Made by a program: the position numbers and the translations under genes. The notes under the pieces were generated by a model, which did not search any database, was not told where the DNA came from, and saw only the letters and a program-made list of their open reading frames with translations. 64,000 bases of DNA from Escherichia coli. GTDB taxonomy: Bacteria; Pseudomonadota; Gammaproteobacteria; Enterobacterales; Enterobacteriaceae. Below, one piece after another: positions 5,438 through 43,678 of this stretch (position 1 is its first letter; each line of letters opens with the position of its first letter). Location: NCBI RefSeq assembly GCF_013122565.1, contig NZ_CP053258.1; one strand, given 5' to 3'.

Positions 5438-5439
5438 GA

Positions 5440-8403: not shown

Positions 8404-8521
8404 CGGCAAAGTGACAAAATGGGAGGGAATGCGCATAAATTGCGCATGATTTTCAAACAAAAATTATTAAAAAGTGAGCTGGGTCAACTCCCCTGGAAGA
8501 TATCCCCAGGGGAGCAATTAT

Positions 8522-17800: not shown

Positions 17801-18195
17801 AGTGTATGCAGATAACCCGAAGCTTGCCCCAGGTTTCTTATCTTTCTTTTCCAGTAGCGAATGCCATCATTAACCAGCTTCTGTCGATGAACATACGGAA
17901 CTTTCCAGTTAATAGAATCTAAAATTGTGTCCCATTTAGGGTGTCCGACCGTATGAGTTCGGCGGATAAACTCTGCGGCATATATGCTAAATAGAACATC
18001 GCTATAGGAAATGAATATCGTTCTTGGATAACTACGGGGGGCATATGTACGCAGTAGTTCTGCCAAACTTTCGTACTCTGTATCAGTACAACGGTAAGCA
18101 TATAACGCCCGTCCATCAGCTCCGGATAATGAACGGCGACTAAAAAACATGTTAAGCCATTGCAAAAGTGGGTTAACTGGAGTTTTCACAAGCAA
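14836..18195 (-). CDS. Large protein of unknown function (1119 aa); Druantia type III DruH-like by position
   Basis: Long ORF immediately upstream of and overlapping the DruE-like gene by 10 nt; no recognisable catalytic motif. Confidence 0.5.
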   Translation of the reverse strand: MLVKTPVNPLLQWLNMFFSRRSLSGADGRALYAYRCTDTEYESLAELLRTYAPRSYPRTIFISYSDVLFSIYAAEFIRRTHTVGHPKWDTILDSINWKVPYVHRQKLVNDGIRYWKRKIRNLGQASGYLHTLACEGGLPIRMIENESGYLITYFRRIYQALRGQSSQYPAAKIAQELGDTIPVTMQNELVYEIAGEFCETLCRLLSEHPPQSSDPVSALRKLSPDWHLQLPLVLPEANAAEIVRRLLSQSSEIRSASSLQVERIWVDVDDSWYCDARFRFPATMRTEQLTSLFECHIQPEQTRLIISGKWKNGGARLAMLSRYEQQDWRVELLPIAMQKLSGADAMAEISLSLHEGPILLGHTIPKGGYELTEELPWVFEAMNESESQLKLVGMGSVSSRLNALFISLPKNSHLDISGEGEFDIPRLLKNSERSLTKISGVFSVVLHDGAVCTIRTQQLYDSAIEYYIKSTEVELVKSDYPVHRAWPKIGWKKDLQYGIVPEKELFWRSIRSGNNAWYSVASEMPKGQIEVRRIVNDEVLFSGKVVVLPADFDINIIPESAQQGIIILSGITDTRIDKYSNNEKVTLKSDYSQNECAIYYNSSQMLENTVDLRVSWKDGSNLKLLLPKPVSGGRFVTNDGSVHFDGVASIAHLHGIDAELLTISCAGRGYLNIELFDENPVAEKFRYLHADLPLLSGRNDKLQQISLYENYNLLNAMLACAWNSNSTLCVDFYSDRFGKDKATLNIKRYDGSFIEHDQGLLVDIKNSVVFPANRIDELVVDAISLKNPGLHISLLKKDEFAYDLSALNVQDSPWLIVGKLDGTARIAPVIKWMLPVLQTNDLLLNALCEADPEQRKKNFNELIFEIDNNPLQNYCCLLTEYIKKYKMNNGLSLLDLDLFRCISSNYRVVVQLLISSCLSGDSDTIYDIQEELPFSWGWIPVSIWKDVFQKCWTYLEKQINDKTLALHILRPFIAFMNHRAHIDRRLAPIANMLLTYSESLPTGCDVLPTVSREQFNEAKQMLLRNPDSFGRISIFPKELWSSAITPELKSVFNKLWIEDKYHSRLEKRFNLMLVAALLTQKDNNLIHQLSALFEFHYQQAPQQLGVIYQYYFEQAGVCH

Positions 18196-25277: not shown

Positions 25278-26225
25278 TCAAGCATTCAGGATGGCTAGCG
25301 CTAAGCTCCTAAACCTGGAGTAAGCCTCATCCCATGTGATCTTTCGCTCTCCATACACCATTGGCGAAACAAACTGCTGATAGCGCATCTCGTAGAGAGG
25401 ATTGTTCGCCAACTCATCCAGTCCCATTTTTAGCTCATCAACTGGAGATGCGCAAAACTGCGGGTACTGGTTGCCGTAACGCTGAATGTCCTGCTCAATA
25501 GTTTGTTGAACAAAATCAACGAGCTGACTCATATCAACATGACTCGTCTCAACAATACAGTTTGTATCGTAGATATGACGTACCAGCGATGCATCATCAA
25601 ATCGCTCAACATCTCGCACAACTGCCGCAGTACGACGTAACATCGCCACCAGCTTTTCTGCCTGTGTGCTAATGATAGTTGCACATGGAAACGCTGAAAC
25701 AATAGCCGCTTTTCCCGTGATCCCTGTTACCAGTGAATGAATATCCCGTAATTCAGAAGGCTCCAGTAACTTCGCTTCCATCAATTCCAGCCGGATAAAA
25801 GGACGCAAACAAGGTGCCTGCACCACTCGCTGTGGATAACGAACAGGTATGTCATTATAACGATATTCATCCCGCGTCACTTTTGGGTAATCATCATCAA
25901 AATTGAACACACCCGATGAAGCTATTGCACTGGAAACTGCCTGAACAATTTCTTTACGGGTATTTTTTCGCTGAGTGCGGGAAAGTGCCTGAAATGCATC
26001 CTTAGGCACCAGTTTGATATCCACATCTTCCGACATGCGATTAAGTGCGACACCTGATTTTGCCAGAGCGGTTCCTCCGGCAAACACCAATTGATGAGTA
26101 TCGAACACCAGAGGTTTAAGCAATTGCAAAAGCTCAACGATATAGTGATCTTTTTCCACAATTGCGACAGACTCAATACCAAGCGCGTCAGCCACTTCAG
26201 AAAAAAGAGTGGTTAAATCATCCAT
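25278..26225 (-). CDS. Nucleotidyltransferase-fold toxin, AbiEii-like (DUF1814-like)
   Basis: N-terminal region with GG..A....D.D motifs typical of minimal nucleotidyltransferases; overlaps upstream small gene by 8 nt. Confidence 0.6.
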   Translation of the reverse strand: MDDLTTLFSEVADALGIESVAIVEKDHYIVELLQLLKPLVFDTHQLVFAGGTALAKSGVALNRMSEDVDIKLVPKDAFQALSRTQRKNTRKEIVQAVSSAIASSGVFNFDDDYPKVTRDEYRYNDIPVRYPQRVVQAPCLRPFIRLELMEAKLLEPSELRDIHSLVTGITGKAAIVSAFPCATIISTQAEKLVAMLRRTAAVVRDVERFDDASLVRHIYDTNCIVETSHVDMSQLVDFVQQTIEQDIQRYGNQYPQFCASPVDELKMGLDELANNPLYEMRYQQFVSPMVYGERKITWDEAYSRFRSLALAILNA

Positions 26226-26613
26226 TTAATCTGCTGTTCCCTACAGATAATACGCGTTTAAAACGCCGGGGGGTTTTTATCTCGGGTGAAGCTGGGATCT
26301 GCGTAGAAGTACCGCTATTGTATGCCTGCGTTGCGCCAGCAAAACGATAGCGTACTTTCAGGCGTTCCAGCGTTTCGACAATCACCGCTGAAGAGCCTCC
26401 GGGAGCCGCTGGCATTACCTTGCCTGTAATACCGTTCCGCCGTGCTTTGGTATACACGCCATAACCAACCTTCAACAGTTGCCCTTCCCTGACAAGATCG
26501 CGCAATACCCGACCAACCTGATCGTAGCCTGCAATATCTTTAAAGTCGTCACGAGTGAATACGTAACGTTTAGAACGTTTCAGTCGTGACTGAATGCGTG
26601 CTTTTATCGTCAT
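26218..26613 (-). CDS. AbiEi-like antitoxin/transcriptional regulator (131 aa from ATG with strong RBS)
   Basis: ORF track start is at 26682, but ATG at 26613 is preceded by AGGAGG; basic N-terminus; stop overlaps toxin start. Confidence 0.5.
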   Translation of the reverse strand: MTIKARIQSRLKRSKRYVFTRDDFKDIAGYDQVGRVLRDLVREGQLLKVGYGVYTKARRNGITGKVMPAAPGGSSAVIVETLERLKVRYRFAGATQAYNSGTSTQIPASPEIKTPRRFKRVLSVGNSRLNG

Positions 26614-26645
26614 ATTCGCCTCCTGAGTCATTGCATAAAGAGTAG

Positions 26646-26689
26646 CAAAAATACGACATTTTAGATAGCAAACATACGACATTCATTTT
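26646..26689. promoter_or_regulatory. Two direct repeats of ATACGACATT in the promoter of the AbiEi-like gene
   Basis: Copies at 26651-26660 and 26674-26683, 23 bp apart; same core as inverted repeats at 35.2-35.3 kb. Confidence 0.4.
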
Positions 26690-27540
26690 GCTGATAACGC
26701 TGACGGAAAGTGCTTCGCCACGATATCATTCATCTTATCCACCAGATCCAGTCGCTTGAATGTGATATGCCCACTGCCCTTCTGAAAGTAGCGAATAGTG
26801 AATAACTCATCTTCGAAAATCTGCTGATGCGGATTATCGCGCACAAAATCCATAAACCGGATGGAGACATCATGCCGGTTATCGGGGATAGGTTTGCCAT
26901 CCAGCAAATAGAGCATACGCTCCAGATCGGCAAGCTGATCTCGCCGCCAGCCCCAGTTCAGGCTGTAGCCCCATCTGTCATGCTTCACCAGATTGTTAAC
27001 GATAATCTTCTTACCGAAATAACAGGGATTATTGGTTTTGTAGTCCCAGCTCAATCCCTTAAATACATTGATAATCCCACGTTCGAAAACATCCTGCTTA
27101 TTGTGGTGAAGTTGTTCAAAGGTACTCAGGATGTTGGCTTCGCTAATCGCCGGGAGATCACCCTCCTCCAGATTCTTTGCCCACTGACTGCGAGCTTCGG
27201 CATCCATCAGAGTCAGCATCCCAGACTTCAGCATGAGATCGCGCCAGATGCTGCGATCGATATTTCGGGTGATCACCGGCATGGCTTTATCCACCGGCTG
27301 CACCAGCCAGCAGTCGAAGGAATGGCCCTGACGCATCGCCCAATGCTCCGCCACATCACCACCGATGCTGGAGGTTAGCCGTGAGATATCATCAAGCTTA
27401 TGGATCAGGATTTCTATCAGACTCAACGCAGCATCACGACCCGTCACGATACGCTCAACATTGGTCGAGCAAATTAGCTCGTTATGATCGGTTAAGACTT
27501 CAGCTTCTGTTTGCATAATCTTTTGTCCGTGTAAAAGCAA
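26683..27540 (-). CDS. Conserved island protein (285 aa), possibly DUF4942-like
   Basis: ORF track; position downstream of a CbtA-like toxin gene as in CP4-type islands; family name recalled, not verified. Confidence 0.4.
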   Translation of the reverse strand: MLLHGQKIMQTEAEVLTDHNELICSTNVERIVTGRDAALSLIEILIHKLDDISRLTSSIGGDVAEHWAMRQGHSFDCWLVQPVDKAMPVITRNIDRSIWRDLMLKSGMLTLMDAEARSQWAKNLEEGDLPAISEANILSTFEQLHHNKQDVFERGIINVFKGLSWDYKTNNPCYFGKKIIVNNLVKHDRWGYSLNWGWRRDQLADLERMLYLLDGKPIPDNRHDVSIRFMDFVRDNPHQQIFEDELFTIRYFQKGSGHITFKRLDLVDKMNDIVAKHFPSALSAK

Positions 27541-27630
27541 ATGCGCCAGCCATGAACAGCAGGCGCATTATGCAGGGAGTTATGAGGGAAGTAATTTTGG
27601 CGATGTAAATCGGGAAGGAGACTTGCAGAT

Positions 27631-27972
27631 TCACCGTGCCGTGGTGTTATAGCAGCGGCGCAGCAGACCTGTAGCCTGCCGCGCCCGCAAAATATCGACC
27701 GCACGAAGATAAGGCGTCTGTTCCTGCCAGCTAAATCCTTTCCTGTCGATACGGATCAATTCGTACTTCTCCACCAGAAAATTGACGGCATCGACCAGAG
27801 TGATCCCGGCGTCTATGTGTTCCTGAATCACCTTTTCATTGTTGAATGGTGTGTCATTAAGATTCAGCCCGTAGTGCTGCTCCAGCAGGCGGGTCAGTAA
27901 TGTTTGCCAGACCACGATGGGCGACAGATATGACGTCGTCGCCCGCAGCGTCGTTGCAGGAATAATTTTCAT
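27631..27972 (-). CDS. CbtA/YeeV-family toxin (type IV TA, cytoskeleton-targeting)
   Basis: Strong similarity to remembered CbtA ([22 protein letters not shown]...[11 protein letters not shown]). Confidence 0.8.
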
Positions 27973-28002
27973 AACGATGTTCCGTATTAAGGAGGTTAAA
28001 AC

Positions 28003-28338
28003 TCAGCGTTGAGTGGGATAAATAGCGATATAGACGTAACCACAGGAACCCAGCGTATCGGCTTCGCAGGTTAGTCCTTTGGCGTATAGCGTGACGGTAC
28101 GTTGTTGGCAGGGGGAGAGTTCACCGTCAGCCAGTTTCAGCTCCAGTTGTTTCATCAGCACCGGAAAAGCCTGGTCGATATGCAGCAGATCCGGGGAGCT
28201 GAATTTCCCGGTGATTGCGGCCCGATCAGCCAGGTAATGCAGGTTATGTCTTTCCTGTACCAGTCGAGCAGTGAAGCGTGGTGTTACGGTACAGGGAAGC
28301 CCCCATTCTTGTTGCATGACCTTGTCCTTTTGCAGCAT
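28003..28338 (-). CDS. CbeA/YeeU-family antitoxin
   Basis: Similarity to remembered CbeA (WGLPCTVTPRFTARLVQE...HYLADRA...TLYAKGLTCEADTLGSCGYVY). Confidence 0.8.
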   Translation of the reverse strand: MLQKDKVMQQEWGLPCTVTPRFTARLVQERHNLHYLADRAAITGKFSSPDLLHIDQAFPVLMKQLELKLADGELSPCQQRTVTLYAKGLTCEADTLGSCGYVYIAIYPTQR

Positions 28339-28811
28339 TACAGCCAGCCCCGTTCGGCAAAAGAGAGGACATCCCCCGCCCCAATAATGAAATGATCCAG
28401 CACCCTCACTTTCACCAAATCCAGTGTCTTAACAATATTCGTTGTAATAAGTCTGTCGGCCCGACTGGGTTCCGTCACGCCGGAGGGATGGTTATGCGCA
28501 AGGATCACTGCTGCGGCATTGTGCCGTAGCGCAGATTTCACAATCTCACGGGGATGTACTTCTGTGCTGTTAATCGTGCCGAGAAATAGCGTTTCGTGTT
28601 CCAGCAGTCGGTTCTGGTTATCGAGGTAGAGCACAACAAACATTTCCCGCTCCTGTCGTGCCAGATGCAGTTGCAGCCAGGTTTTTGTGGAGTCAGAGGA
28701 AAGAAAAGATTCGCCAGGATTTCGTTGATATTTCTCCAGCAGACGCATCGCACGGCGGATAACGCGTTGTTCACTCACCGAAAATACCGGTGTTAGCATC
28801 AGTTCAGACAT
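28338..28811 (-). CDS. RadC-like JAB/MPN domain protein (YeeS/YfjY family)
   Basis: JAMM-like motif HNHPSG...S..D; CP4-type context. Confidence 0.8.
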   Translation of the reverse strand: MSELMLTPVFSVSEQRVIRRAMRLLEKYQRNPGESFLSSDSTKTWLQLHLARQEREMFVVLYLDNQNRLLEHETLFLGTINSTEVHPREIVKSALRHNAAAVILAHNHPSGVTEPSRADRLITTNIVKTLDLVKVRVLDHFIIGAGDVLSFAERGWL

Positions 28812-28840
28812 TGTGTTTCCTTTACTATTAATAGCGTTGT

Positions 28841-29659
28841 TTATGAGGCCAGTTGCAACATGTTTTCAGCCATCACCCACAGGGCGCGGTTGAGCCTGAC
28901 ATCGCCGTCGATGCCTTTAATGGCGCGGGTGTGCGTGCGACCACCTTTTGCCGTCCGCCCGTTTAAACCACCTTTGATCAGGTTCTCCTGAATTCGCTGG
29001 TAGGTCGTCCACAGATCGCCGGATTCATCCTGCCAGCGGCGCGGAGCCAGCAACTGGGATTCCGTCACTGGCTGGTACTCTTCGCCAAAGCGGTACGTCA
29101 GCGCCGCCTTTGCCAGCGCCTGTTGCGCAGGGGGAGGCAGCATCAGCGACTGCATGGCATCGCGTTTCTCTTCAACCTGGTCAAAAACACTGAGGACTTC
29201 ATAAGCGCCTTCAATCACTTTCTCCACCACATTGCCTTTATGCGGTACTCGTACTTCACCAAACGACTCGCCGCAGACCAGTCCGTTACAACAAACAGAA
29301 CGGAACAGCCCTGGCAGCATCTGATAAGAACTGGAACCGTCATGGCTGTTGAGCAGAATAATTTCCGGCACCTGGTTGCGATTGATCTGGTCTTCCCGGC
29401 GCAGACGCAGCATGTGTTTTGTATGCTCACGTTTACCCACATCACGAACACGGGTCTGGCAGGCAAAGAAAGGATGAAATCCTTCACGCTGGAGGTTATC
29501 GAGCAGGGTAATGGTGGGAATATAGGTATAGCGTTCGCTGCGTGATTCGTGCTTATTTTCCCCGAATACGCTGGGGACATACTGCATCAATTCGTCATGC
29601 GTTAATGGGCGATCGCGACGGATTTGATTTACGCGGCCAAAGCGGCTGGCTAAGTTCAT
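28841..29659 (-). CDS. DUF932-like island protein (YfjQ/YafZ-like)
   Basis: Size (272 aa) and position upstream of radC-like gene as in CP4-type islands; assignment from memory. Confidence 0.5.
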   Translation of the reverse strand: MNLASRFGRVNQIRRDRPLTHDELMQYVPSVFGENKHESRSERYTYIPTITLLDNLQREGFHPFFACQTRVRDVGKREHTKHMLRLRREDQINRNQVPEIILLNSHDGSSSYQMLPGLFRSVCCNGLVCGESFGEVRVPHKGNVVEKVIEGAYEVLSVFDQVEEKRDAMQSLMLPPPAQQALAKAALTYRFGEEYQPVTESQLLAPRRWQDESGDLWTTYQRIQENLIKGGLNGRTAKGGRTHTRAIKGIDGDVRLNRALWVMAENMLQLAS

Positions 29660-29845
29660 GGTAAATGCCTTAATAAAGAATATAAAAAACAGGGCCGCAG
29701 CTTCTGAAAAATTGCGGCTAATTTAATGCGTGATTAAAACGGACGGTAGTATAGGTGGGATAAAATAACAGGTACGTGCAGATATTAAATTACATTCCGG
29801 CAGTGCATATATGAAAGTGATATAGTGCTGAAATAATACATATCT

Positions 29846-29876
29846 GAATTCTCCCGGTGATAGTCACCGGGAGAAT
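29846..29876. terminator. Perfect 14 bp inverted repeat hairpin (AATTCTCCCGGTGA-TAG-TCACCGGGAGAATT)
   Basis: Read directly; located 20 nt after stop of the 317 aa gene on minus strand. Confidence 0.4.
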
Positions 29877-29895
29877 TTAAGTTTGAAATGACACC

Positions 29896-30849
29896 TCAAC
29901 CACGGGATAATCTTGTTTCTATTCCCTGAACTCTTTCGTCTATTAACCTTTCAATAACAGATATTTTATCTGACTTGTAAAATTCAACCAGAAAATCCAG
30001 ACGCTCTTTATGCGTATCACTGATAGACTCCCGTTCCCGTTTTTCAGAAAGTTTACGTCTGAAGTTTTTTTGGTAAAACGCTTTATTTAATTTCTTTACC
30101 GCTTTCTGCTGGAGATCATCATTCGCTGACCATAAATCCAGCATGGCATAAACGGCGTGATAGGTTTCTACACTATTCAGTGGTTCCGGGATCTGAACGG
30201 GGTCCAACTGGCTTCCTGTATTACTACCGTGCTCTTTCTGGAATTTATTAATGTAATTATAAGCCCATATCCAGACTTCGTCATTATCCTCATTAAGCCA
30301 GCGTAATTTTATTCTCTGATGTTCATTTGCCCTCCAGAATACAAGCCTCTCATATAGCCACTGTCTCATCAACGGTGCCTGATTAGTCTCAATATTAATA
30401 TAGTCCAGTAATGCAACGATGATTGAGTATCTTTCGCTATGGCTTGCAGGAGAATCTGTTATTCCGGCTTTCTGATACCAGTTAATGTTTAAATTTGTGC
30501 CCAGCTTTTCGTTAATTGACTCCATACAGCGGTAATCAAGACACATCACGCCCCATAGCCAGAACGTCGCTCTTTCATTTTCTTTTAACCAACTAAAATA
30601 TTTCTCCGGCAGAAGCATCGTATTAATCGACAGCTCCAGTGAGCGAATAAAATTACTTCGCTGAATGGGATCGGGATACCCGGCCTCGAGGGCTGTATTA
30701 ATAATTCTCTCCGAAAGAGATGTATCTGGATTGTTCCCGTCAAACGCAAATTGATTTGCTCCCTGAATGTTTTTCCTGATGTACCAGAAAAGAAACCTGC
30801 TGGTTCGGATGTCCTTCACTGCTATTGATGAGCGCACATTAACGGCCAT
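29896..30849 (-). CDS. Hypothetical protein (317 aa), no recognisable domain
   Basis: ORF track; long ORF followed by hairpin. Confidence 0.45.
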   Translation of the reverse strand: MAVNVRSSIAVKDIRTSRFLFWYIRKNIQGANQFAFDGNNPDTSLSERIINTALEAGYPDPIQRSNFIRSLELSINTMLLPEKYFSWLKENERATFWLWGVMCLDYRCMESINEKLGTNLNINWYQKAGITDSPASHSERYSIIVALLDYINIETNQAPLMRQWLYERLVFWRANEHQRIKLRWLNEDNDEVWIWAYNYINKFQKEHGSNTGSQLDPVQIPEPLNSVETYHAVYAMLDLWSANDDLQQKAVKKLNKAFYQKNFRRKLSEKRERESISDTHKERLDFLVEFYKSDKISVIERLIDERVQGIETRLSRG

Positions 30850-31441
30850 TGTTCTACCTCGTCATCCTTGTTAAATCAGCAAAAAGCAATAGCGTAATTA
30901 TGACGTGTTTTCGAAGTAAAACCGTAGCAATAAATCAATAAAAGTGGAAAACAAGTAGTAATATCGTGTTATTCCATAGTAATAGAGTACCATTAACGTA
31001 GTTTTTTATTTATCACCATACTCACAGCTTCCGCCCGTAGAAAACGGCTGGATAGTCTTAAATTTTTCCACGTATAGCCCTGGTGGCTTTACGGGTGAAA
31101 CCTCCCAGGATAACGAGTTGACATCTGGAAGATGTCATTCATGATCGCAACTCATAGATTAGATCAATGTATTAATTATAACTTAAGAGTGAAATTCTTT
31201 ATCTTCAGGAACAGATAATTAACTACGAACACCAGTAAATACCGGGCTTCTACTCTTTTTATCACCCTTTCTTTATGAATCAACATTGCCGGTATTAATA
31301 TTATGTTTATCACTCATTCATTAGATTCAGCATATAGAGGGATGACACCAGAGACAGGGAAAAGTAATCCAGATCGGCATAGCTCAGTGAAAAGTTACTA
31401 CAGCACTTATGGATATGTAACCAACCACAAGGAACTGAAGC

Positions 31442-32056
31442 ATGAAACTGAATGAACGATATGGCAAGCCTAATGCACACTATATGAAACGTCTGGAAGA
31501 GATTACTCGCTATGCGATGGAGGATTACGCCAGAATACTGGCTTTCAGAGTGGATTTATTACTGCCAGTGGGTAATAGCCATAAAGGGTATGATTCAGCG
31601 GTTATTACCCGTTTTATAGCCTCACTGAAAGCACAGATAGCCGCATATTTACAACGGCGCAGGAGAGACGGTAAACGTGTTTACCCCTGTAAGCTGCGAT
31701 ATGCATGGGTAAGAGAATTTGGCGAACTGAATGGCAACAAGCATTATCACATGCTGTTGTTGGTTAATCGGGAAGTATTCAGGAACACCATGCTGAATAC
31801 GGAGAATTCAGCGCAACCTCGCGGATTGCTGGTGGGAATGGTGGCGCGTGCATGGGCTGTGGCGCTTAGACGTACCGGAGATATGGCAAATAAAGCCCCC
31901 TTTCATTTACCGGGCGTCTCTTATGAACTGGACCGCAGAAATGGCACAAATACGGACTTTTTCCGCAGCTACATATACCACATCAGTTATCTGGCGAAGG
32001 AGTACACCAAAAACCACGATGACGGTGAACGTAACTTTGGTTGTAGTCAGGGATAA
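31442..32056 (+). CDS. YagK/YfjJ-family (inovirus Gp2-like) island protein
   Basis: 204 aa; HYHMLLLV motif and basic character as remembered for YfjJ/YagK proteins; low certainty. Confidence 0.45.
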   Translation: MKLNERYGKPNAHYMKRLEEITRYAMEDYARILAFRVDLLLPVGNSHKGYDSAVITRFIASLKAQIAAYLQRRRRDGKRVYPCKLRYAWVREFGELNGNKHYHMLLLVNREVFRNTMLNTENSAQPRGLLVGMVARAWAVALRRTGDMANKAPFHLPGVSYELDRRNGTNTDFFRSYIYHISYLAKEYTKNHDDGERNFGCSQG

Positions 32057-32173: not shown

Positions 32174-32392
32174 ATGAACAATCAACCGAATACCGATACT
32201 GACCTGATGAATGACAAACTGGTGACGATGGCATTTATTACCACGTTTACTGGCCTGACCGACAAATGGTTTTATAAACTGATTAGTGAAGGCAAGTTTC
32301 CAAAGCCTATCAAACTGGGGCGTAGTTCCCGCTGGCGGGAAAGTGAAGTTAAACGCTGGCTGACGGAACGTATTGCAGAATCCCGCTATTAA
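32174..32392 (+). CDS. alpA: AlpA-family transcriptional regulator / excisionase-like protein
   Basis: 72 aa; typical AlpA sequence (LTDKWFYKLISEGKFPKPIKLGRSSRWRESEVKRWL). Confidence 0.8.
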   Translation: MNNQPNTDTDLMNDKLVTMAFITTFTGLTDKWFYKLISEGKFPKPIKLGRSSRWRESEVKRWLTERIAESRY

Positions 32393-32594: not shown

Positions 32595-33380
32595 TTAGGA
32601 ATTAAATGTCCAGCTACCCGTATCGGTCACAATGTCAGCTTCAATGATACGGTCACACTTCATATATTTGAACGTAGCCACATCACCGAATTTATATTTT
32701 GCTGGCAGGGTTCTGTTACCGACGCTCTCCATTTTACAGTTCCCTCTGTTTACCCGAATGGATTTCAGCACCACGTTGTCATCAGTGATAGTGAGCTGAA
32801 TAACACCATATCTGGTATTCCAGCCTTCATTGCTGACGGAGCTGCCGAACTGAACTTTAAATGGTGGTGTCGTAGATTGCTGTACCTGCTGTTGTTGAGA
32901 GGGAGCAGGTTTATTAGCCTGCTGGCTACCAACGCTATTAATGCCATTCTGAAGGAGGCTCCTGGAAACCTTAATGGTACCCGGCTTGCATGATACTGTG
33001 CTGGTTTCCTGCCCCATTGCATTCATGACAGTGTAATAAGCATCACCTGTACCATCATATTCTGAGTAATTGACTGCAACCGCGCCTTCGATATCTTCAT
33101 TTTCTCCACGTAATGTGAAAGAAGCAGTTCCTGCTCCCGGATTAGCCGCCAGAGTCTGTTTCGCTTCGCCGGAAGGAATATCCAGTTTGATAACGGAACC
33201 ACCTTCTTCGGAGTCACCACCTGGCGTTTCAAAACTGATATAAACGGTATTACTGACGTGGCTGAGTGTCATTTGCTCACCGTTATCAAGCAGACATTGC
33301 AGGTCATAGGCCCCGACAGCATAAGCAGGGTGGAATGCAAATAAAGATACAAACAATACAGGTATAATGATTGGTTTCAT
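32595..33380 (-). CDS. Secreted protein of unknown function (261 aa): signal peptide, two Cys-pair domains, Q-rich linker
   Basis: N-terminal MKPIIIPVLFVSLFAFHPAYA signal peptide; 12 nt downstream of GTPase gene stop. Confidence 0.5.
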   Translation of the reverse strand: MKPIIIPVLFVSLFAFHPAYAVGAYDLQCLLDNGEQMTLSHVSNTVYISFETPGGDSEEGGSVIKLDIPSGEAKQTLAANPGAGTASFTLRGENEDIEGAVAVNYSEYDGTGDAYYTVMNAMGQETSTVSCKPGTIKVSRSLLQNGINSVGSQQANKPAPSQQQQVQQSTTPPFKVQFGSSVSNEGWNTRYGVIQLTITDDNVVLKSIRVNRGNCKMESVGNRTLPAKYKFGDVATFKYMKCDRIIEADIVTDTGSWTFNS

Positions 33381-35339: not shown

Positions 35340-35706
35340 GTGTTAGCCGGGAAAGGATATCTGTTACTTACTAAAATGATTTAGTGCTGAAAATATTTAT
35401 AAGCTAATAAATAGACAGGTATTACGGAGTAACGCCCAGGCTATGTTAACGAGCCCGCTGTTTTATTGGCTCAAAAAACATATCCCATAGATGTTCAGCC
35501 ATACCCTCGTTAGTGAGCAAGGTATCCCTTGAGTAGCCAGGGCTGAAGACGCCCATTGATGGGCGAAAACCAAGGATCTGGCCGTTAGAACAGTTATGTC
35601 GTTAAACACATCACCACCATATGCCATCCGGCTCACTTCGTCGGCCAAATTAGTGTGATATTCTTTCCAGAAATGCTGTTGTATCCACGACATAAGGCGA
35701 TGATTG

Positions 35707-38700
35707 ATGGAGCAGTCTCTCAATTTTGAAATGTTGCGCAGCCAGTGGCCGGAACTGGCTGAACTCGCGTGCATGGCGGAACACTATGTTCACTCCGATC
35801 CGGAAAGCTGTCTGGTCAAGCTGCGCAACTACACCGAATTGATGGTGCGCTGGTTGTATCGTCAGGAGCGGTTGCCGGAAGGTATTAAGGCTAATCTTTA
35901 CGATTTAATGAATGCTGATGTCTTTACCAGCATGATGCCGGAAGCCATCATCATGAAAATGGATGCGCTGCGTATCCATGGCAACCGTGCCGCGCACGGC
36001 GGACGTATCAAAGCTAAAGATACTTACTGGCTGCTCAAAGAAGCGTATTTGTTGGGAATTTGGCTGTATGTTCGCTACGCCCACGGTAATGTTGATGACT
36101 GCCCCAAATTTACACTCCCTCCATTAACACCATCTTCAGGTCGTGCAGATGAAAAACGTCTGGAAGATGCAATCAAGGCTCAGGATGAAAGCCGTGAGCG
36201 CGAACTGGCGCTACAACGCGCACTACAGCAAGAACAGGAAAAGGCCGAACACCTCACTCAACGCCTGAATGAAGCCAGAGCGCGTAACCAGCATGTTGCC
36301 GATATTCTCTCTATTGATGAAGCGGAAACCCGCCGTCGCCTGATTGACTCTCGCCTGCTTGCTGCTGACTGGAATGTAGGCGAAGAACTTAATAATACCG
36401 ATCAGGTCACGCAGGAACACCCCGTTAAAGAACAACCTACTGCAACCGGTGACGGTTATGCAGACTATGTCTTGTGGGATGAGGCACACAAACCGCTGGC
36501 GGTGGTGGAAGCCAAAAAAACTAGTGTCAATGCCGAGCAAGGACGAATTCAGGCCCGGCTGTATGCAGACTGGCTGGAAAAAGAATACGGTCAGCGTCCG
36601 GTCATCTTCTACACCAACGGCTATGATATCTGGCTGTGGGATGACCATAAAACTCATGGTTATCCCCCGCGTCGGGTGTTTGGCTTCTACAGCAAGGAAA
36701 GCCTGCAATATCTTATTCAGCAGCGTGAAACCCGTCTGCCGCTGAACAGAGTGCCACACGTAAAAGATAACGAAGGTAAGGCCGTTGCCGGACGTTTGTA
36801 CCAGCTCGAAACCATTGCCCGCGTCAGTGAACGGTTTACCAACAAGTACCGACAATCGTTAATTGTTCAGGCTACGGGTACAGGCAAAACCCGCGTGGCA
36901 ATTGCACTAAGCAAACTGATGATTGATGCCCGCTGGGTAAAACGCGTCCTGTTTCTTTGCGACCGTAAAGAGCTGCGTAAACAGGCGGCAAATGCCTTTA
37001 ATCAATTCACCAATGAGCCGCTGTATGTGGTCGGGAAATCGAAGAAAGCAGACAGGCAGAACGCCAGGATCTACATCGCTACCTATCCCGGTATGATGAA
37101 AATCATGGACCATTTCGATGTCGGATATTTCGATCTGATTATCGCCGATGAATCCCATCGCTCTATCTACAACGTTTACGGCGATCTGTTTAAGTATTTT
37201 GATGCCCTCCAGATTGGCCTGACGGCCACGCCGATCGACATGGTGAGTAAAACGACTTTCGGCCTGTTTGGTTGTGAAGGACGTATCCCTACCGCCAACT
37301 ACAGTCTGGAAGATGCCATCGCCGATAACAATCTGGTTCCCTATGAGGTTGTCACGCACACCACAGAATTCCTGCGCGAAGGCATCAAACGGGAGAAATT
37401 AAGCGACACACAAATCCGCGAGCTGGAAGAACAAGGCATAGATCCCAATACGCTGGAGTTTGATGGCAAGGCGCTGGATGAGGCGATCTACAACAAAGAC
37501 ACCAACCGCTATATCCTGCGTAACCTGATGGAAAATGGCCTGAAAGATCGGGACGGCCAGTTGCCAGGTAAAACCATCATTTTCGCCCGTAACCACAAAC
37601 ACGCGCTGCTGTTGAATGAATTGTTCGACGATATGTACCCGCAGTTTGCCGGGCGCTTCTGCCAGGTCATCGACAATTACGATCCCCGCGCCGAGCAACT
37701 GATTGATGATTTTAAAGGGCTGGATGAAAGCACTAACAAAGAGCTAACCATCGCTATCTCCGTTGACATGCTCGATACCGGTATTGATGTCCCGGAGATT
37801 GTGAATCTGGTCTTTGCCAAACCGGTCAAATCAAAAGTGAAATTCTGGCAGATGATTGGCCGTGGTACGCGCCTCTGTCCGGGGTTGTACGGTTACGACG
37901 ATAACGGCAAACCTCTGGATAAACAGAAATTCCGCATTTTCGATCACTGGGGCAATTTTGAGTATCACGAACTGCATACCGAAGAGGCCGAAGTCACAGC
38001 GACAAAATCGCTTGCACAAAAACGCTTCGAAGCGTGGGTTATGCTGGGGGCCGCTGCGCAACGTAAATTCGACAAACAGGCGGTGGATTTAGTTGCTCAC
38101 CAGCTTCGCGAGCAAATCAACGCACTGGATGAAAAGTCGATTGCCGTACAGGAAAAGTGGCAGCAAAAAGCGCAGTACAGTGATGAAAAGGTGCTGCGCC
38201 AGCTTTCTCCGAAAACACAGCAGGATCTGCTATCTGTTCTGGCCCCGCTGATGCAGTGGCTGGACGTGCGCGGGCAAAGCGATGCCATACGCTTTGATAT
38301 GGATATTCTGGCGGCGCAAACTGCCCGTTATACCAACCCGGAAGAGCTGGATGTGCTCTGGCCGGCCATCGTCGAAAAAGTGGAGCGCCTGCCGCCGCAT
38401 TTGGCGCAGGTGCAGCAACAGGGACAGCGGATCAATCAGCTTCGTGATTTAAGCTGGTGGAAGCAGGCCAGCCTGGAAGAGCTGGAGGATATTCGCATTC
38501 ATTTGCGCGGTATCATGCACCTGATGGAAAAAGACGCGACGCCTAAATTTGGTTCGATACAGGTGGATATTACCGAAGATGCGAACCTGATCCAGACGGA
38601 GACCCGCAAAACTAATATCCGCTCGATTGATTTCAAACTCTATCGCCAGCAGGTTCAGGGGGCGCTGGAGCCGCTGTTCCAGCAAAACCCGGTTCTGAAG

Positions 38701-39120
38701 AAAATCCGCAACGGCGAGCCAGTCACGCAAAACGAGCTTGATGAACTGGCGAAGCTGGTGCTGATCCAGAACCCCAACGTTGATATCCGGGCACTGAAAG
38801 AGTTCTATCCGCAGGCAACCGCCAGCCTGGATAAACTTTTGCGTACCATCATCGGGATGGACAGCGACGCGGTGGAAGTGCGCTTTGCTCAGTTCGCCGC
38901 TGATAACAGTCTAACCAGCCAACAACTGCGCTTCCTGTCATTGCTGAAAAACCACATTCGCGATTACGGCACCATTGAAATGCGGCAGCTCTTTGAACAG
39001 CCTTTTACGCATATCCACAACGAAGGCGTTACCGGTGTGTTCCCTGATATAGAGCAGATCGCCCGCCTGCAAAAGATAGTCGAAGAGCTGGGTGTTGTGA
39101 CCGACGCAGCGACGGTATAA
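35707..39120 (+). CDS. hsdR: Type I restriction enzyme R subunit
   Basis: DEAD-like helicase motifs (GTGKT, DESHR), size about 1137 aa; immediately upstream of hsdM/hsdS; ATG 35707 preceded by AAGG. Confidence 0.85.
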   Translation: MEQSLNFEMLRSQWPELAELACMAEHYVHSDPESCLVKLRNYTELMVRWLYRQERLPEGIKANLYDLMNADVFTSMMPEAIIMKMDALRIHGNRAAHGGRIKAKDTYWLLKEAYLLGIWLYVRYAHGNVDDCPKFTLPPLTPSSGRADEKRLEDAIKAQDESRERELALQRALQQEQEKAEHLTQRLNEARARNQHVADILSIDEAETRRRLIDSRLLAADWNVGEELNNTDQVTQEHPVKEQPTATGDGYADYVLWDEAHKPLAVVEAKKTSVNAEQGRIQARLYADWLEKEYGQRPVIFYTNGYDIWLWDDHKTHGYPPRRVFGFYSKESLQYLIQQRETRLPLNRVPHVKDNEGKAVAGRLYQLETIARVSERFTNKYRQSLIVQATGTGKTRVAIALSKLMIDARWVKRVLFLCDRKELRKQAANAFNQFTNEPLYVVGKSKKADRQNARIYIATYPGMMKIMDHFDVGYFDLIIADESHRSIYNVYGDLFKYFDALQIGLTATPIDMVSKTTFGLFGCEGRIPTANYSLEDAIADNNLVPYEVVTHTTEFLREGIKREKLSDTQIRELEEQGIDPNTLEFDGKALDEAIYNKDTNRYILRNLMENGLKDRDGQLPGKTIIFARNHKHALLLNELFDDMYPQFAGRFCQVIDNYDPRAEQLIDDFKGLDESTNKELTIAISVDMLDTGIDVPEIVNLVFAKPVKSKVKFWQMIGRGTRLCPGLYGYDDNGKPLDKQKFRIFDHWGNFEYHELHTEEAEVTATKSLAQKRFEAWVMLGAAAQRKFDKQAVDLVAHQLREQINALDEKSIAVQEKWQQKAQYSDEKVLRQLSPKTQQDLLSVLAPLMQWLDVRGQSDAIRFDMDILAAQTARYTNPEELDVLWPAIVEKVERLPPHLAQVQQQGQRINQLRDLSWWKQASLEELEDIRIHLRGIMHLMEKDATPKFGSIQVDITEDANLIQTETRKTNIRSIDFKLYRQQVQGALEPLFQQNPVLKKIRNGEPVTQNELDELAKLVLIQNPNVDIRALKEFYPQATASLDKLLRTIIGMDSDAVEVRFAQFAADNSLTSQQLRFLSLLKNHIRDYGTIEMRQLFEQPFTHIHNEGVTGVFPDIEQIARLQKIVEELGVVTDAATV

Positions 39121-39183: not shown

Positions 39184-40818
39184 ATGATCACTGGTGACTT
39201 AAAAAGTAAAATCGACGGACTATGGGAAGATTTCTGGGTGGGTGGTATCACCAACCCGCTGACTGTAATCGAACAGATCACCTATCTAATGTATTCCCGG
39301 ATGCTGGATACCCAGGAACAACGTGACGAGAAGCGTAAACAAATCGCGGGTATTGATTTTAAACCGCGTTTTACGCCAGAACAGCAGGAGTTCCGTTTCA
39401 GTCACTATAGCAATCTTGGCTCGGATGAGATGATGGAAGTGGTGCGCGATGGCGTATTCCAGCATTTTCGTCAGCTCGGCCTGGCTGATGCATCAAAGGT
39501 GACACTGCTGGGCAACTTTATGAAAGATGCTCGTCTAGAGATTGTTAAGCCGTCATTGCTGACCAAAGCGGTTGAGGTGATCAAAAACCTGCCGCTCGAT
39601 CGCGGCGATACCAAAGGCGATCTCTACGAGTACCTGTTGAGCAAGCTAACTACCGCCGGGATCAACGGTCAGTTCCGCACGCCACGCCACATTATCCGCA
39701 CGATGGTTGAAATGATGGAGCCGAATCCCGCCCGCGGCGAGACGATTTGCGATCCAGCCTGTGGCACCGGTGGTTTTCTGGCAACCAGCTATGAATATCT
39801 GCTGGAGAAGTACAGCTCGCTGGAATCCATCCATACTGAGATTGGCACCAACGAACGTGGCGAGCTGGAAGAGCAAAAAATCTTTACCGGCGATCTGCTG
39901 ACGCCATGGCGTAACCATGTGGATAACAATATGTTCCACGGTTACGACTTTGATACCACCATGCTGCGTATCGCCGCCATGAACCTGATTATGCACGGCG
40001 TGGAAGCGCCTGATATCCACTATCAGGACACCATGAGCCAGAGCTTCAGCACAAACTTCCCGCAGGCCAGTAAAAACGCTTTCAACCTGATTCTGGCAAA
40101 CCCGCCGTTTACCGGTTCACTGGACGAGGAAGATATCGACTCCACGCTGTCGGCAATGGTGAAAACAAAAAAAACCGAACTGCTGTTCCTGGCGCGAATT
40201 CTGCAAATGCTGAAAGTGGGCGGGCGAAGTGCCACTATCGTGCCGCAGGGCGTGCTGTTTGGCTCCAGTAAGGCGCACCAGTCACTTCGCAAAACGTTGG
40301 TGGAAGATAACCAATTGGAAGCGGTGATCAACCTGCCTTCCGGCGTATTTAAACCTTACGCTGGCGTGGCGACGGCGATCCTGATCTTTACCAAAGGCGG
40401 TCAAACGGATGAGGTCTGGTTCTACGATCTACAAAATGACGGCTACAGCCTGGATGATAAGCGCAACCCGATAAAAGACAACGATCTGCCGCATCTGCTG
40501 GCAAGCTGGAAGCATTACCGTACTTTACGCGGGCTACCGGTTGATAACTTTATGGGTGAGAAGTTAGCCTCATTGCTGAAACAGCAGTACCCGGAAGGGA
40601 TTGATGCTGGCGTTGATTTTAAAGATCGCACGCAGGCGGCATTTGTGGTGCCGAAAGAAGATATTGCTGCGCAGAAATACGATCTCTCTATCAATCGTTA
40701 TAAAGAGGTGGTGTATCAGGCGGAGGAATATGAAGATCCGAAGGTGATACTGAAACGATTAAAAGATCTGGAAAAAGAGATTCTGGCGGATCTGGATGAG
40801 CTGGAGGGGATGCTGTGA
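39184..40818 (+). CDS. hsdM: Type I R-M N6-adenine DNA methyltransferase M subunit
   Basis: N-terminal HsdM-like region, AdoMet motif ([10 protein letters not shown]) and NPPF catalytic motif. Confidence 0.9.
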
Positions 40819-41990
40819 GCAGGAAAGAATATTCCTTTATTGAAGTATGTGATATCCAAGGAGGAACTCAGCCTCCAAAGGACGAGTTTGTTTATGAAAA
40901 AAAAGATGGATATATAAGGCTTTTACAAATCCAAGATTTTAAAAGAGAGGATAAAACTGTTTATATTAAGGATAGGCATACTCTGAAAAAATGTAATGAC
41001 GATGATATTCTAATAGGTAGATATGGAGCATCTATTGGAAAAATTCTCTCTGGGTTATCAGGAGCATATAACGTTGCTTTGGTTAAAGCCATCCCTGATT
41101 TAAAAAAAATAAACAAGAGATTTTTATGGCATTTTTTAAACAGTGTAGTATTTCAAGAATTTATAAAAAATGTTTCTACTCGAGCCGCTCAAGCTGGGTT
41201 TAATAAGGATGACTTAGCAAAGCTAAAAATATATTTACCATCTTTAAATGAGCAAGTGAAAATTGCTTCTGTTCTTGATTTATCTGATGCCATACGCAAA
41301 AAACGAGAACAAACTATCAAACTGGCTGATGATTTTTTGCGTGCTACGTTTTTGGAGATGTTTGGTGATCCTGTTGAAAACCCTAAAGGATGGAAAAAGG
41401 ATAAAATAAAAAAAGGTGTGTTAGGCATTGCTTCAGGATGGAGTGCCACTGGAGAAAATATACCCTGTAAATCTGATGAATTTGGCGTGTTGAAAATCAG
41501 CTCGGTGACTTCTGGAGTATTCAAACCAGAAGAAAATAAAGTGGTAGCCTGTGAATCCATTCCCGCTTCAAAAAAACTTATTCACCCTAAAAAGGGAGAT
41601 TTGCTATTTAGTCGCGCAAATACCAGAGAGTTAGTTGCTGCGATATGCATGGTTCATCAGGATTATGACAACCTTTTCCTTCCTGATAAACTATGGTCTA
41701 TTAAGTTAAATCATAAGCTATTGCTACCAGAGTTCTTTCTCATCTTAATACAAAATGAAAAAGTCCGTGAGTTACTAACAAAACAAGCGACCGGAACAAG
41801 TGGGTCGATGCTAAATATATCTAAAAATAAATTTGAAGAAACTGAAATTATCTTCCCAGAGATCAATGTTCAAAAAGATTTTTGCAATACTTTCAGAAAA
41901 ACAATAAATTTGAAAACAAAGTTAATAAAAAGTAATGAATTAGCTAATGAGTCATTTAATTCATTATCTCAAAAGGTATTTCAGCAATGA
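40815..41990 (+). CDS. hsdS: Type I R-M specificity subunit
   Basis: 391 aa with two target-recognition-domain halves; GTG start overlapping hsdM stop (GTGA) with GGAGGGGA RBS; AT-rich. Confidence 0.8.
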   Translation: MSRKEYSFIEVCDIQGGTQPPKDEFVYEKKDGYIRLLQIQDFKREDKTVYIKDRHTLKKCNDDDILIGRYGASIGKILSGLSGAYNVALVKAIPDLKKINKRFLWHFLNSVVFQEFIKNVSTRAAQAGFNKDDLAKLKIYLPSLNEQVKIASVLDLSDAIRKKREQTIKLADDFLRATFLEMFGDPVENPKGWKKDKIKKGVLGIASGWSATGENIPCKSDEFGVLKISSVTSGVFKPEENKVVACESIPASKKLIHPKKGDLLFSRANTRELVAAICMVHQDYDNLFLPDKLWSIKLNHKLLLPEFFLILIQNEKVRELLTKQATGTSGSMLNISKNKFEETEIIFPEINVQKDFCNTFRKTINLKTKLIKSNELANESFNSLSQKVFQQ

Positions 41991-43678
41991 AAATTGTTTA
42001 TACACCTGATCGATCCTGGAGAGAAATCCCACCAGCAAAACCAGAACTTGGTGATGTTTTATCTCTGAGCAGTAATAATTGGGATGACTATGGATATAAA
42101 ACTACTCTAAACGCAAAAATATACATTAAGAATCAATCTATTTCATTTGATTTTTCAATTAAATTATTAATTGAAAATATCGATAACACGGCAATAAAGC
42201 TAGATGAATTATGTAAAGATGGATGGGATGGAATATTCCCCATCCCTAATACTAACTATATAGCTCTTCCATCTGATATTGATTTTTATCAAATACTCAT
42301 ATCTAAAATAGGTGAGGAATCAACAGTCAATCTTCTGAATGATCTGAACGATGCAGGTTTCAATAAAAATGTTTACCATAATGAAATATCTAACAGACTC
42401 ATAGAACAAGATGCCTTTAAAACGTCATTACTCCGAGAAAGTGGAGCAAATAAAGCCTATCTAGACGGTTATCTGATATTCCAAAATATTCACGCAGAAA
42501 TAAGAAACTTTCAGTTAAATATTTTAACGAAAAAAGGAGGTGTAAATAAGATACCATTTAAATTTGAATCTAATTTATTGCCTTATGATATTAATGTTAT
42601 TATTGGCCCGAATGGGATTGGTAAATCTCATTGCCTGAAATCACTTGTTGAATATTGGTTGCAAATAGGAATGGGGGAACAACGATTACTTGAAAAGAAT
42701 AAGCATACTCCATTTGATGAACGACCTAACATAAGTAAGCTTGTTCTTGTTTCTTATAGCCCTTTTGAAGAGTTCAGCCTAGATCTAGAAAAAGACAATT
42801 TACAAGATAAAAAGGCATATCAATATTTTGGTTTCAGGCAAATGAGAGATAATGGGACAATTGGTATCAGTCGAAACTTACCAGCTTTAAATTCAAGTGA
42901 GTCATTACTTGAAATGATATCTGATGATAAGAAATACCAATTCATTGAAAATCGAATAAATAAGCTCAACTCTGTCGATTCTGCACTCAAATCTGCTATT
43001 AGCTATGATTATTGTGTTCTAAGATTATCTCCAGAAGATAACTCATCTTATCTCGGGAAAGATATTGTCATAATTGATGGCGAAAAATATCTCCCTGCAG
43101 TAAATATTGTAAAATGGGCTGATCATTTAGATTTAATAAGGGATTCTATACTACTCAATGATGGTGTAATCTTTGTTAAAGATGGGGAAATTGTAAATCT
43201 TAGTTCTGGCCAACGATTATTTGTATATATAGCTATTAATGTTGTCGGTGCAATGAAAGAAAATAGCTTAATTGTGATTGATGAACCTGAATTATTTTTA
43301 CATCCTAACCTTGAAATAGAATTCATTGGGCTACTAAAAAAATTACTTAAATCATTTCGCTCTAAAGCTATTCTAGCTACTCATTCCCTATCTATCACAC
43401 GTGAAGTACCGTCAAAATGTGTACATATATTCCGCTACAAGGATGACGAATTTGAAATAGTCCCCCCGCCATTTGAAACATTTGGCGGTAATGTTCAGAG
43501 AATTTCTTCTTATGTTTTCGGCGATAAATCGATCTCTAAGCCTTTTGATGAATGGCTTGAGATGCAGCTTCAAGCTATTAAAGATCCTGAAAAATTAATT
43601 GAAATGCTAAATGAAGAAATTAATGAAGAAATAATCATGAAAATCATGAGTTTAGGGAAAAAGTATCATGGTCACTAA
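41987..43678 (+). CDS. ABC/AAA-type ATPase (563 aa) with an about 200 aa N-terminal domain of unknown function; Septu PtuA-like
   Basis: Walker A GPNGIGKSH near residue 208; Walker B-like VIDEPELFLHP; ATGA overlap with hsdS stop. Confidence 0.55.
   Translation: MKIVYTPDRSWREIPPAKPELGDVLSLSSNNWDDYGYKTTLNAKIYIKNQSISFDFSIKLLIENIDNTAIKLDELCKDGWDGIFPIPNTNYIALPSDIDFYQILISKIGEESTVNLLNDLNDAGFNKNVYHNEISNRLIEQDAFKTSLLRESGANKAYLDGYLIFQNIHAEIRNFQLNILTKKGGVNKIPFKFESNLLPYDINVIIGPNGIGKSHCLKSLVEYWLQIGMGEQRLLEKNKHTPFDERPNISKLVLVSYSPFEEFSLDLEKDNLQDKKAYQYFGFRQMRDNGTIGISRNLPALNSSESLLEMISDDKKYQFIENRINKLNSVDSALKSAISYDYCVLRLSPEDNSSYLGKDIVIIDGEKYLPAVNIVKWADHLDLIRDSILLNDGVIFVKDGEIVNLSSGQRLFVYIAINVVGAMKENSLIVIDEPELFLHPNLEIEFIGLLKKLLKSFRSKAILATHSLSITREVPSKCVHIFRYKDDEFEIVPPPFETFGGNVQRISSYVFGDKSISKPFDEWLEMQLQAIKDPEKLIEMLNEEINEEIIMKIMSLGKKYHGH

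Follow-up and report, generated by a model that had tools for sequence, protein, structure and literature searches.

Which role belongs to the 317-residue protein encoded on the minus strand of a 64,000-nucleotide (nt) stretch of Escherichia coli DNA (contig NZ_CP053258.1, assembly GCF_013122565.1), which is called here, at its full length, the window? Every database copy of this protein is annotated as 'hypothetical protein'. Its gene is part of the conserved backbone of a CP4-type E. coli island inserted at a tRNA gene (leuX or selC), and by profile and structure comparison the C-terminal ~45 residues are a ribbon-helix-helix (RHH) DNA-binding domain of the plasmid copy-control or Arc-repressor type. 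The reading preferred here, which has about an even chance of being right, is that of an island-specific RHH regulator which would act on the divergent control region upstream of its gene and would be transcribed alone, a hairpin behind the gene being a non-canonical terminator or insulator. The gene and the parts of its product are the following.

29896-30849, minus strand: protein-coding open reading frame (ORF) of 317 amino acids (aa) with an ATG start, from the ORF list
30121-30849, minus strand: N-terminal domain (codons 1-243), all-alpha with 11 helices, without a recognised relative
29920-30042, minus strand: RHH core (codons ~270-310), with the strand RERESIS, the helix HKERLDFLVEFY, a turn and the helix ISVIERLIDER

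The gene family and its C-terminal domain

The ORF ends in a TGA stop at 29896-29898 and has a GAGG 9 nt 5' of its ATG. The first-pass annotation, which was made from the letters of the window, had marked an interval (29846-30849) that holds this ORF together with the hairpin behind it, and the ORF stands as a genuine, unnamed gene, because it is under purifying selection (ratio of nonsynonymous to synonymous substitution rates, dN/dS, of 0.19-0.32 among four E. coli alleles) and full-length homologues are known down to ~20% identity. It has a G+C content of 40.9%, against 46.5% in the window. Of 5426 complete E. coli genomes, 217 have a chromosomal match of 95-99.3% identity to the 1.8 kb around the gene, Nissle 1917, ABU 83972 and W among them.

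A word-indexed search of 5.8 billion proteins returned only 12 clusters, all from Enterobacteriaceae, and the profile of these clusters recovered, in a non-indexed search, 333 representatives at 50% identity (E<=1e-3), 168 of them at E<=1e-10 and nearly all of 290-330 aa. The family, which is unnamed, occurs in islands of Enterobacterales, with hosts such as Escherichia coli, E. albertii, E. whittamii, Enterobacter, Hafnia, Morganella, Providencia, Siccibacter, Superficieibacter and Tenebrionibacter, and on large plasmids of Klebsiella, Citrobacter and Raoultella; the 17 plasmid matches are the same island module inside large plasmids. A phage origin of the family was rejected, since tblastn gave no match in 50,697 phage records. 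A profile search of six-frame translations found no family gene in the K-12 elements CP4-57, CP4-44 and CP4-6.

The first-pass annotation had called the protein domain-less and had pointed to remote homology as the way to place it. The first part is true of the single protein, for which Pfam (0 families at E<=1), PHROGs and PADLOC gave no match, NCBIfam gave one spurious and unrelated match below threshold, and PDB sequences gave noise only; it is not true of the family, whose profiles reveal the RHH domain at the C-terminus and leave the N-terminal domain without a relative. Homology to a housekeeping or phage structural protein, which would have overturned the annotation, did not turn up. 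When 108 diverse family members were searched singly, NCBIfam matches were to PRK13702 (replication regulatory protein RepA) in 37, RepC_IncLM in 13, a CopG-like LexA-regulated protein in 10 and ORF56 copy control in 3, and Pfam matches were to RepB-RCR_reg in 20 and RHH_1 in 7. The PHROGs matches are Arc-like repressors, and a few members match RelB, BrnA, VapB or CopG antitoxin models. The matches to RHH models of Pfam, NCBIfam and PHROGs all fall within the final ~45 residues. Searched against PDB, the family profile picks out 2kel, an RHH protein (E=0.002), and then CopG, with the strand and both helices aligned, and in three dimensions the segment superposes on solved RHH domains. A conserved basic helix, NKAFYQKNFRRK, precedes the RHH core on its N-terminal side.

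The N-terminal domain of ~245 aa is kept throughout the whole family, and its near-invariant residues among the 108 members are R15, W87, W99, R140, D149, W184 and W195. Structure prediction presents it as a well-modelled fold without a solved relative.

Island backbone and divergent control region

The neighbourhood of the gene was read in 22 related loci from distinct lineages (L numbers denote related loci), among which the identity of the family protein ranges from ~20% to 99%. In all 20 loci that have upstream sequence, a YagK/YfjJ gene lies 0.4-4.2 kb upstream on the other strand, with alpA next after it wherever the sequence reaches, one locus ending earlier; L034 and L035, whose upstream DNA is cut or rearranged, are outside the 20. 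The same-strand genes downstream in the relatives encode a GTPase, DUF3944, antirestriction, DUF932 and RadC proteins, and in nearly all loci the family gene directly heads a DUF932/antirestriction/RadC/CbtA operon, the exceptions being L007 and L035, where the downstream genes are unrelated or on the opposite strand. In the window the divergent genes are these.

31442-32056, plus strand: YagK/YfjJ ('inovirus Gp2') HUH Rep-like protein, the divergent partner (Pfam YagK_YfjJ_C 1.4e-37, REP_ORF2-G2P 2.4e-7)
32174-32392, plus strand: AlpA-family regulator, downstream of the yfjJ-like gene (Pfam Phage_AlpA 3.2e-10)

The YagK/YfjJ translation, read by eye, contains the motifs FRVDL, HYHMLLL and YLAKEY (the third in longer form YIYHISYLAKEY), and because all three HUH-endonuclease motifs are present, the protein is predicted to be possibly an active nickase or Rep and not a relic. 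The backbone module also travels on large conjugative IncFIB/IncHI1B plasmids of Klebsiella, Citrobacter and Raoultella. The Klebsiella quasipneumoniae plasmid p2012C06-006-1 (L013) has the entire module at 4102-17982, with two Gp2 genes, AlpA, the family gene, WYL, DUF932, antirestriction, RadC and YeeU/CbtA.

Between the island of the window and distant islands, the family protein has 28-30% identity, YfjJ 30-44%, the GTPase ~42%, AlpA 62-73%, RadC 75% and DUF932 76-86%, so the family protein is the fastest-diverging backbone gene product, a pattern that would be typical of a specificity determinant. The gene is assigned to the island backbone and not to the cargo because the protein has no PADLOC match and the gene keeps its position while the cargo varies. 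These data bear also on a role in conflict, as an antitoxin-like, anti-defence or defence protein with an N-terminal effector or sensor and an RHH domain kept for autoregulation, as in type II antitoxins. Such a role would agree with the fast divergence relative to the neighbours, with the few matches to antitoxin models, and with islands that are rich in defence systems and in which antirestriction and toxin-antitoxin genes adjoin the family gene. It is nevertheless very improbable: PADLOC assigns the protein to 0 families, the gene is outside the variable cargo segment, no co-transcribed toxin is adjacent, a hairpin and a separate promoter coming next instead, and the constant partner is the YfjJ/AlpA pair and not a toxin.

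The space between the family gene and the yfjJ-like gene is where the proposed regulator would bind, and its features are as follows.

30850-31441, between the two genes: AT-rich divergent control region of 592 bp, G+C 36.7%
30897-30902, minus strand: CATAAT, a -10-like hexamer 48-53 nt before the ATG, inside a TCATAAT block kept in relatives
30923-31040, minus strand (coding strand of the family gene): direct-repeat boxes, CTACG at 30923-30927, 30997-31001 and 31036-31040, CTAC at 30955-30958
31118-31145, plus strand: candidate promoter of the yfjJ-like and alpA genes, TTGACA-16-CATGAT, from a promoter scan

With its 36.7% G+C against 46.5% for the window, this region agrees with the non-coding spacer of about 590 bp that the first-pass annotation had described: its ORFs are all short (<=50 aa) and not conserved, and the longest (31303-31455), read by eye, is shortened to 18 codons in the relative with 81% identity. 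A small RNA, which the annotation had considered for this spacer, finds no support: neither the window nor any of five related loci gave an Rfam match, and beyond close relatives no sequence is conserved except short boxes beside the start of the gene. The spacer has 68.6% identity to that of the 81%-identity lineage and is unalignable to those of other relatives. On the plus strand it holds three copies of TTTATCAC (31009-31016, 31259-31266 and 31307-31314), which resemble the heptad that omega, an RHH protein, recognises.

Aligned with one another, the upstream regions of five family genes, which encode proteins of 42-100% identity and have spacers that cannot otherwise be aligned, show four boxes in common, each built on CTAC(G), and also the TCATAAT block. 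A simple sigma-70 scan did not call the CATAAT hexamer because it has no good -35. All five aligned relatives have the box at 30923-30927 unchanged, the boxes at 30955-30958 and 30997-31001 have an invariant core (CTAC and ACTA.G), and the box at 31036-31040 is not conserved. The CTACG direct repeats are probably an operator array, as their counts suggest: in 200 nt from each of 19 loci, the coding strand has 20 copies of CTACG and the opposite strand 4, where ~2 are expected, and the maximum in 2000 shuffles is 10.

A second type of repeat, AAAACC, has 3-5 coding-strand copies 70-210 nt before the family gene in L004, L009 and L013-L018, where 0.15-0.2 copies are expected; its spacing is partly exactly 11 nt, and it is confined to the clade with the RHH strand DKKALNTYL. 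A general rule by which repeat type and RHH beta strand covary was rejected, since it holds for AAAACC with DKKALNTYL and fails for CTACG.

Phased repeats of this kind could also be coated by a DNA-organising or segregation protein, similar to MatP, ParG or omega, which would compact, silence or partition the excised island. The 11-nt phased arrays of that one clade, the long, AT-rich spacers and an architecture of helical domain plus RHH would suit such a protein; against it, the similarity to MatP is confined to 34 RHH columns (hhalign probability 23%), no partition ATPase is nearby, and the repeats cluster within ~200 nt of the gene's own start and are not dispersed. This explanation is held to be quite improbable.

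On the yfjJ side, the candidate yfjJ promoter has its -35 overlapped by a palindrome, TGACATCT-GGA-AGATGTCA (31119-31137, read by eye). The same half-site recurs at the distant locus L011 in CTGACATCTG-N6-CAGATGTCAG, a 10-bp palindrome ~45-75 nt before its yfjJ-like start, and other loci have different, element-specific palindromes at the corresponding place.

The end of the gene and the downstream operon

Behind the stop codon the minus strand carries a hairpin, a pair of short repeats and an operon, in this order.

29847-29877, minus strand: hairpin with a perfect 14-bp stem and a 3-nt loop, arms 29847-29860 and 29864-29877, beginning 18 nt past the stop
29817-29848, minus strand: two tandem 16-mers, TTCAGATATGTATTAT and TTCAGCACTATATCAC, directly past the hairpin, diverged copies of the motif TTCAGACCTATATTAC
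26683-29659, minus strand: same-strand downstream operon (Pfam), composed of the next five genes
28841-29659, minus strand: DUF932 (Pfam)
28338-28811, minus strand: RadC (Pfam)
28003-28338, minus strand: YeeU/CbeA antitoxin (Pfam)
27631-27972, minus strand: CbtA toxin (Pfam)
26683-27540, minus strand: DUF4942 (Pfam)

The perfect stem past the stop had been seen in the first-pass annotation, and its arms are indeed 100% complementary, with 8 G-C pairs of 14. The annotation was also correct in counting it among the strongest hairpins, because no other perfect close-spaced inverted repeat in the 64 kb is as long; the runner-up is a perfect 13-bp stem, GACCAACTAGCCC / GGGCTAGTTGGTC, at 46080-46109, directly past the stop of an integrase gene. 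Folded as RNA, the 35-nt hairpin reaches -23.1 kcal/mol (z = -7.6, 0 of 200 shuffles as stable) and its 81-nt context -30.7 kcal/mol (z = -6.8). A degenerate pattern of the hairpin has 1 match in the window and 0 in 100 shuffles, and a search of Rfam 15 with the hairpin gave only a chance-level microRNA match (E 0.97).

Among E. coli alleles the stem is constant and the loop alone varies (CTA vs TAA). At this spot the 81%-identity lineage has another hairpin, in which both arms differ, and a 3' flank that is identical over 21 nt; since the arms are register-shifted in the alignment, which gives no pairwise count of compensatory changes, the claim is limited to a different hairpin in the same place. 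Six more distant relatives have stable, unrelated hairpins just past the stop, in sub-sequences that were chosen after the folds had been seen. Structure and position, rather than sequence, are conserved at the 3' end of the gene, and the hairpin is probably a transcript-end structure or insulator.

The motif TTCAGACCTATATTAC is exact in 7 related loci and has 1-2 mismatches in 4 more, in every case on the operon strand and just upstream of the next gene. The exact copies are the following.

L003, 5554-5569
L013, 10001-10016
L015, 7007-7022
L016, 7012-7027
L017, 7001-7016
L018, 7020-7035
L022, 6038-6053

The 16-mer is constant before the DUF932/GTPase/RadC operon although the family proteins are only 25-45% identical, L033 and L034 having more diverged variants. 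In L007, where the first operon gene sits elsewhere, the 16-mer moves with that gene. It was not found in CP4-57, CP4-44 and CP4-6 of K-12. The 16-mer is probably the promoter of the downstream operon, with TATAT as -10, and it may combine a promoter with an activator site, for which AlpA is a candidate binder, or may be a HUH nick region; because AlpA and the 16-mer are both highly conserved, the DUF932-operon promoter is possibly AlpA-dependent. In L013, L014, L015, L017 and L018 a hairpin like a canonical terminator, AACGGCAGCAG-AAGT-GCTGCCGTTTTGTTATTT, lies ~10 nt past the 16-mer (~10017-10075 in L013). It sits inside an outer GTGAG...CTCAC stem, and GGAGG and then the next gene come after it. 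This region, which has no match in Rfam, looks like a leader, an attenuator or a short RNA. The gene order of the downstream operon is identical in the E. coli relatives.

A HUH partner gene and a constant short motif raise another explanation, in which the family protein would be an accessory of the YfjJ nuclease at an origin or origin of transfer (oriT), akin to TraY, TrwA, NikA and TraM. The hairpin and the 16-mer would then be the inverted repeat and nick region of a transfer or rolling-circle origin, and the antirestriction, DUF932 and RadC genes the leading region. The motifs HYHMLLL and YLAKEY of the divergent partner with its REP_ORF2-G2P match, the constancy of the 16-mer across elements with diverged proteins and the leading-region type of the downstream genes point in this direction; we also take the 16-mer core CTATATTAC to resemble the nick nonanucleotides of HUH enzymes (TAATATTAC), and CTACG the nick sequence of pMV158. 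The explanation is weakened because the geometry is variable, the loops are unrelated and the nearest RHH profiles are those of transcriptional copy-control repressors, not of relaxosome proteins. The hairpin and the 16-mer overlap by 2 nt in the window and are 24 nt apart in L022 and ~250 nt apart in L024, while in L007 they are on opposite sides of the module with other genes between them, the hairpin standing between convergent genes. The hairpin loops share no common sequence. In L013-L018 the 16-mer has no hairpin upstream and is followed by the terminator-like hairpin and a Shine-Dalgarno sequence, as a promoter and leader would be. An origin accessory is judged unlikely.

In the preferred reading, that of an island-specific regulator, RHH dimers, probably joined into higher oligomers through the N-terminal domain, would bind the CTACG-type repeats lying across the promoter of the gene that encodes them. 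This binding would set the level of the regulator gene itself and of the opposing yfjJ-alpA transcript, the replication and excision module of the island, with the N-terminal domain serving for oligomerisation or signal input. The regulator gene would be monocistronic, a layout suggested by the hairpin that the window and at least six relatives have behind the stop, with a separate, conserved promoter-like motif next; the hairpin would end or stabilise the mRNA and insulate the DUF932 operon, which would be driven by its own promoter, the conserved 16-mer with TATAT. Beyond the identity of the domain, the synteny and the presence of the motifs, we infer every part of this model.

Several observations weigh against the regulator model. 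The window protein itself has no RHH match and passes no curated threshold, and because it never scores, its assignment to the RHH superfamily depends on profile and structure evidence; the highest score noted for any single member, 19.6 bits, is under the Pfam cut-off of 21. The monomer model has coil at residues 275-277 and no beta strand where one is expected, a state that might fit an obligate RHH dimer. The repeat statistics overstate independence because many of the 19 loci are related. The CTACG boxes also precede family genes with a differing RHH strand (L033, L034 and L019), so the binder could be the well-conserved AlpA or YfjJ protein. Across clades there is no conserved element near the yfjJ start, which makes the regulation of yfjJ-alpA a conjecture. 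The G+C-rich stem-loop expected of an intrinsic terminator is present just past the stop and the U-run is lacking: no T-run is found 3' of the hairpin on either strand (tail CAGAUAUGUAUUAUUUC) and the terminator scan made no call, so the hairpin, whose stem is followed by no T-run, is not called a canonical intrinsic terminator. Five accession numbers of the family are mentioned in no paper of the literature.

The island setting and known systems

From the integrase inwards the island has its cargo, then a WYL regulator, a YeeP-like GTPase and a 261-aa protein, AlpA, YagK/YfjJ and the spacer, followed by the family gene on the other strand, DUF932, RadC, the YeeU/CbtA pair, DUF4942 and AbiEi/AbiEii. 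In other strains the same module is at tRNA-Sec or leuX. The cargo consists of type I restriction-modification, an AAA ATPase and a DUF4365 protein in the window, and of Dsr1 and others elsewhere. The ends and the cargo of the island in the window are listed here.

47619-47703: tRNA-Leu(CAA), the insertion site of the island
46151-47419: integrase, adjoining tRNA-Leu(CAA)
44843-45847: DUF4365 protein
43668-44594: 308-aa ORF without a family, overlapping the ATPase gene
41987-43678: AAA_21/AAA_15 ATPase
39184-41990: two ORFs past HsdR, at the position where L002 annotates type I M and S subunits
35704-39120: HsdR, type I restriction enzyme
25278-26682: AbiEi/AbiEii toxin-antitoxin or abortive-infection pair at the distal end of the island (PADLOC E 5e-128 and 5e-53)

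The ATPase and the 308-aa ORF form a pair that looks like a defence system. The N-terminus of the 261-aa ORF (32595-33380, minus strand) resembles a signal peptide, and neither Pfam nor PADLOC has a family for it; the E. coli islands keep this ORF between the genes for the GTPase and AlpA. Outside the island, four very large ORFs at 521-18195 on the minus strand encode a 1638-aa protein that has an Eco57I-type methylase domain, an SNF2 helicase of 952 aa, a protein of 2107 aa with a DEAD helicase and the MrfA Zn-binding DUF1998, and a protein of 1119 aa without a family; this set is a DISARM- or Druantia-like combination.

The setting invites a stronger version of the regulator model, in which the protein would be a master immunity or sensor repressor of the widespread, tRNA-inserted, defence-carrying Enterobacterales islands with the YfjJ-AlpA-DUF932-RadC-CbtA backbone. 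Its fast-evolving N-terminal domain would have a new fold and would sense a signal from a helper, for example a protein of a phage or of a conjugative plasmid, the RHH domain would leave the phased repeats, and AlpA-driven excision together with YfjJ-driven rolling-circle replication or mobilisation would start. This version is regarded as improbable. If true, it would explain the movement of the supposedly cryptic CP4-type islands, which, with this backbone, occupy leuX, selC and further tRNA genes in ~4% of complete E. coli genomes and bear restriction-modification, Dsr1, AbiE and other defence cargo. A predicted element-specific DNA-binding protein between the excision/replication genes and the antirestriction/toxin operon is an obvious candidate for their control.

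Defence islands of Pseudomonas that are inserted at tmRNA, carry intY, alpA, an inovirus-Gp2-like gene, RadC and YqaJ and are transduced by a jumbo phage have been described (bioRxiv 10.1101/2024.08.29.610337), with most of their core genes left unexplained. They share the backbone elements integrase, AlpA, Gp2-like protein and RadC and likewise carry defence cargo. In I23 and I55, as far as their annotation tables go, an MmeI-type enzyme occupies the row preceding the Gp2-like gene, and no counterpart of the family protein is described. The distant family member L011 has a YqaJ/RadC/AlpA/YfjJ context.

Other known proteins are similar in one respect each. MatP likewise has a helical domain followed by RHH and gives weak profile matches; the family protein lacks its C-terminal coiled coil and has no matS-like palindromes, and MatP was rejected as a full-length relative on the hhalign comparison with E. 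coli MatP given above. YfjH of K-12 CP4-57 (318 aa), which is also divergent from alpA, is not homologous (BLASTP E 5.6, hhalign probability 0.4%). Relaxosome RHH proteins (TraY, TrwA, NikA and TraM) are not the best profile matches, the hairpin and the 16-mer have no fixed geometry, and no relaxase of a known MOB class is present.

In position, as a lone regulator head-to-head with excision or replication genes, the family gene is like Stl of the SaPIs, immunity repressors and the AlpA circuits of CP4-57 and Gram-negative PICIs, and it diverges fast, as immunity determinants do. Stl and the satellite repressors have no sequence or fold relation to the family protein, and Stl has an N-terminal helix-turn-helix. 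We know of no helper or inducer for the island, and the island in the window has no capsid, packaging or primase genes.

Copy-control RHH repressors, such as CopB/RepA2 of IncFII (PRK13702), RepC of IncL/M, CopG of pMV158 and ORF56 of pRN1, are the best profile matches of the C-terminal ~45 residues. They are autoregulated and bind repeats at their promoter, and like theirs the family gene adjoins a replication-initiator-like gene, but one that is divergent and 0.4-4.2 kb away. While these repressors are single-domain proteins of 45-90 aa that are co-transcribed upstream of rep, the family protein is encoded in a chromosomal island and, because it has 317 aa, carries its RHH C-terminally behind a ~245-aa domain and is divergent from the Rep-like gene, it is not a member of the copy-control families as they are defined. 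What is new is this unusual architecture with its unsolved N-terminal fold, whereas the class of function, an RHH regulator of a mobile element, is ordinary. By analogy, the family protein might be compared both with CopB or CopG repressing a rep promoter and with the master repressor of a satellite facing its excision-replication operon.

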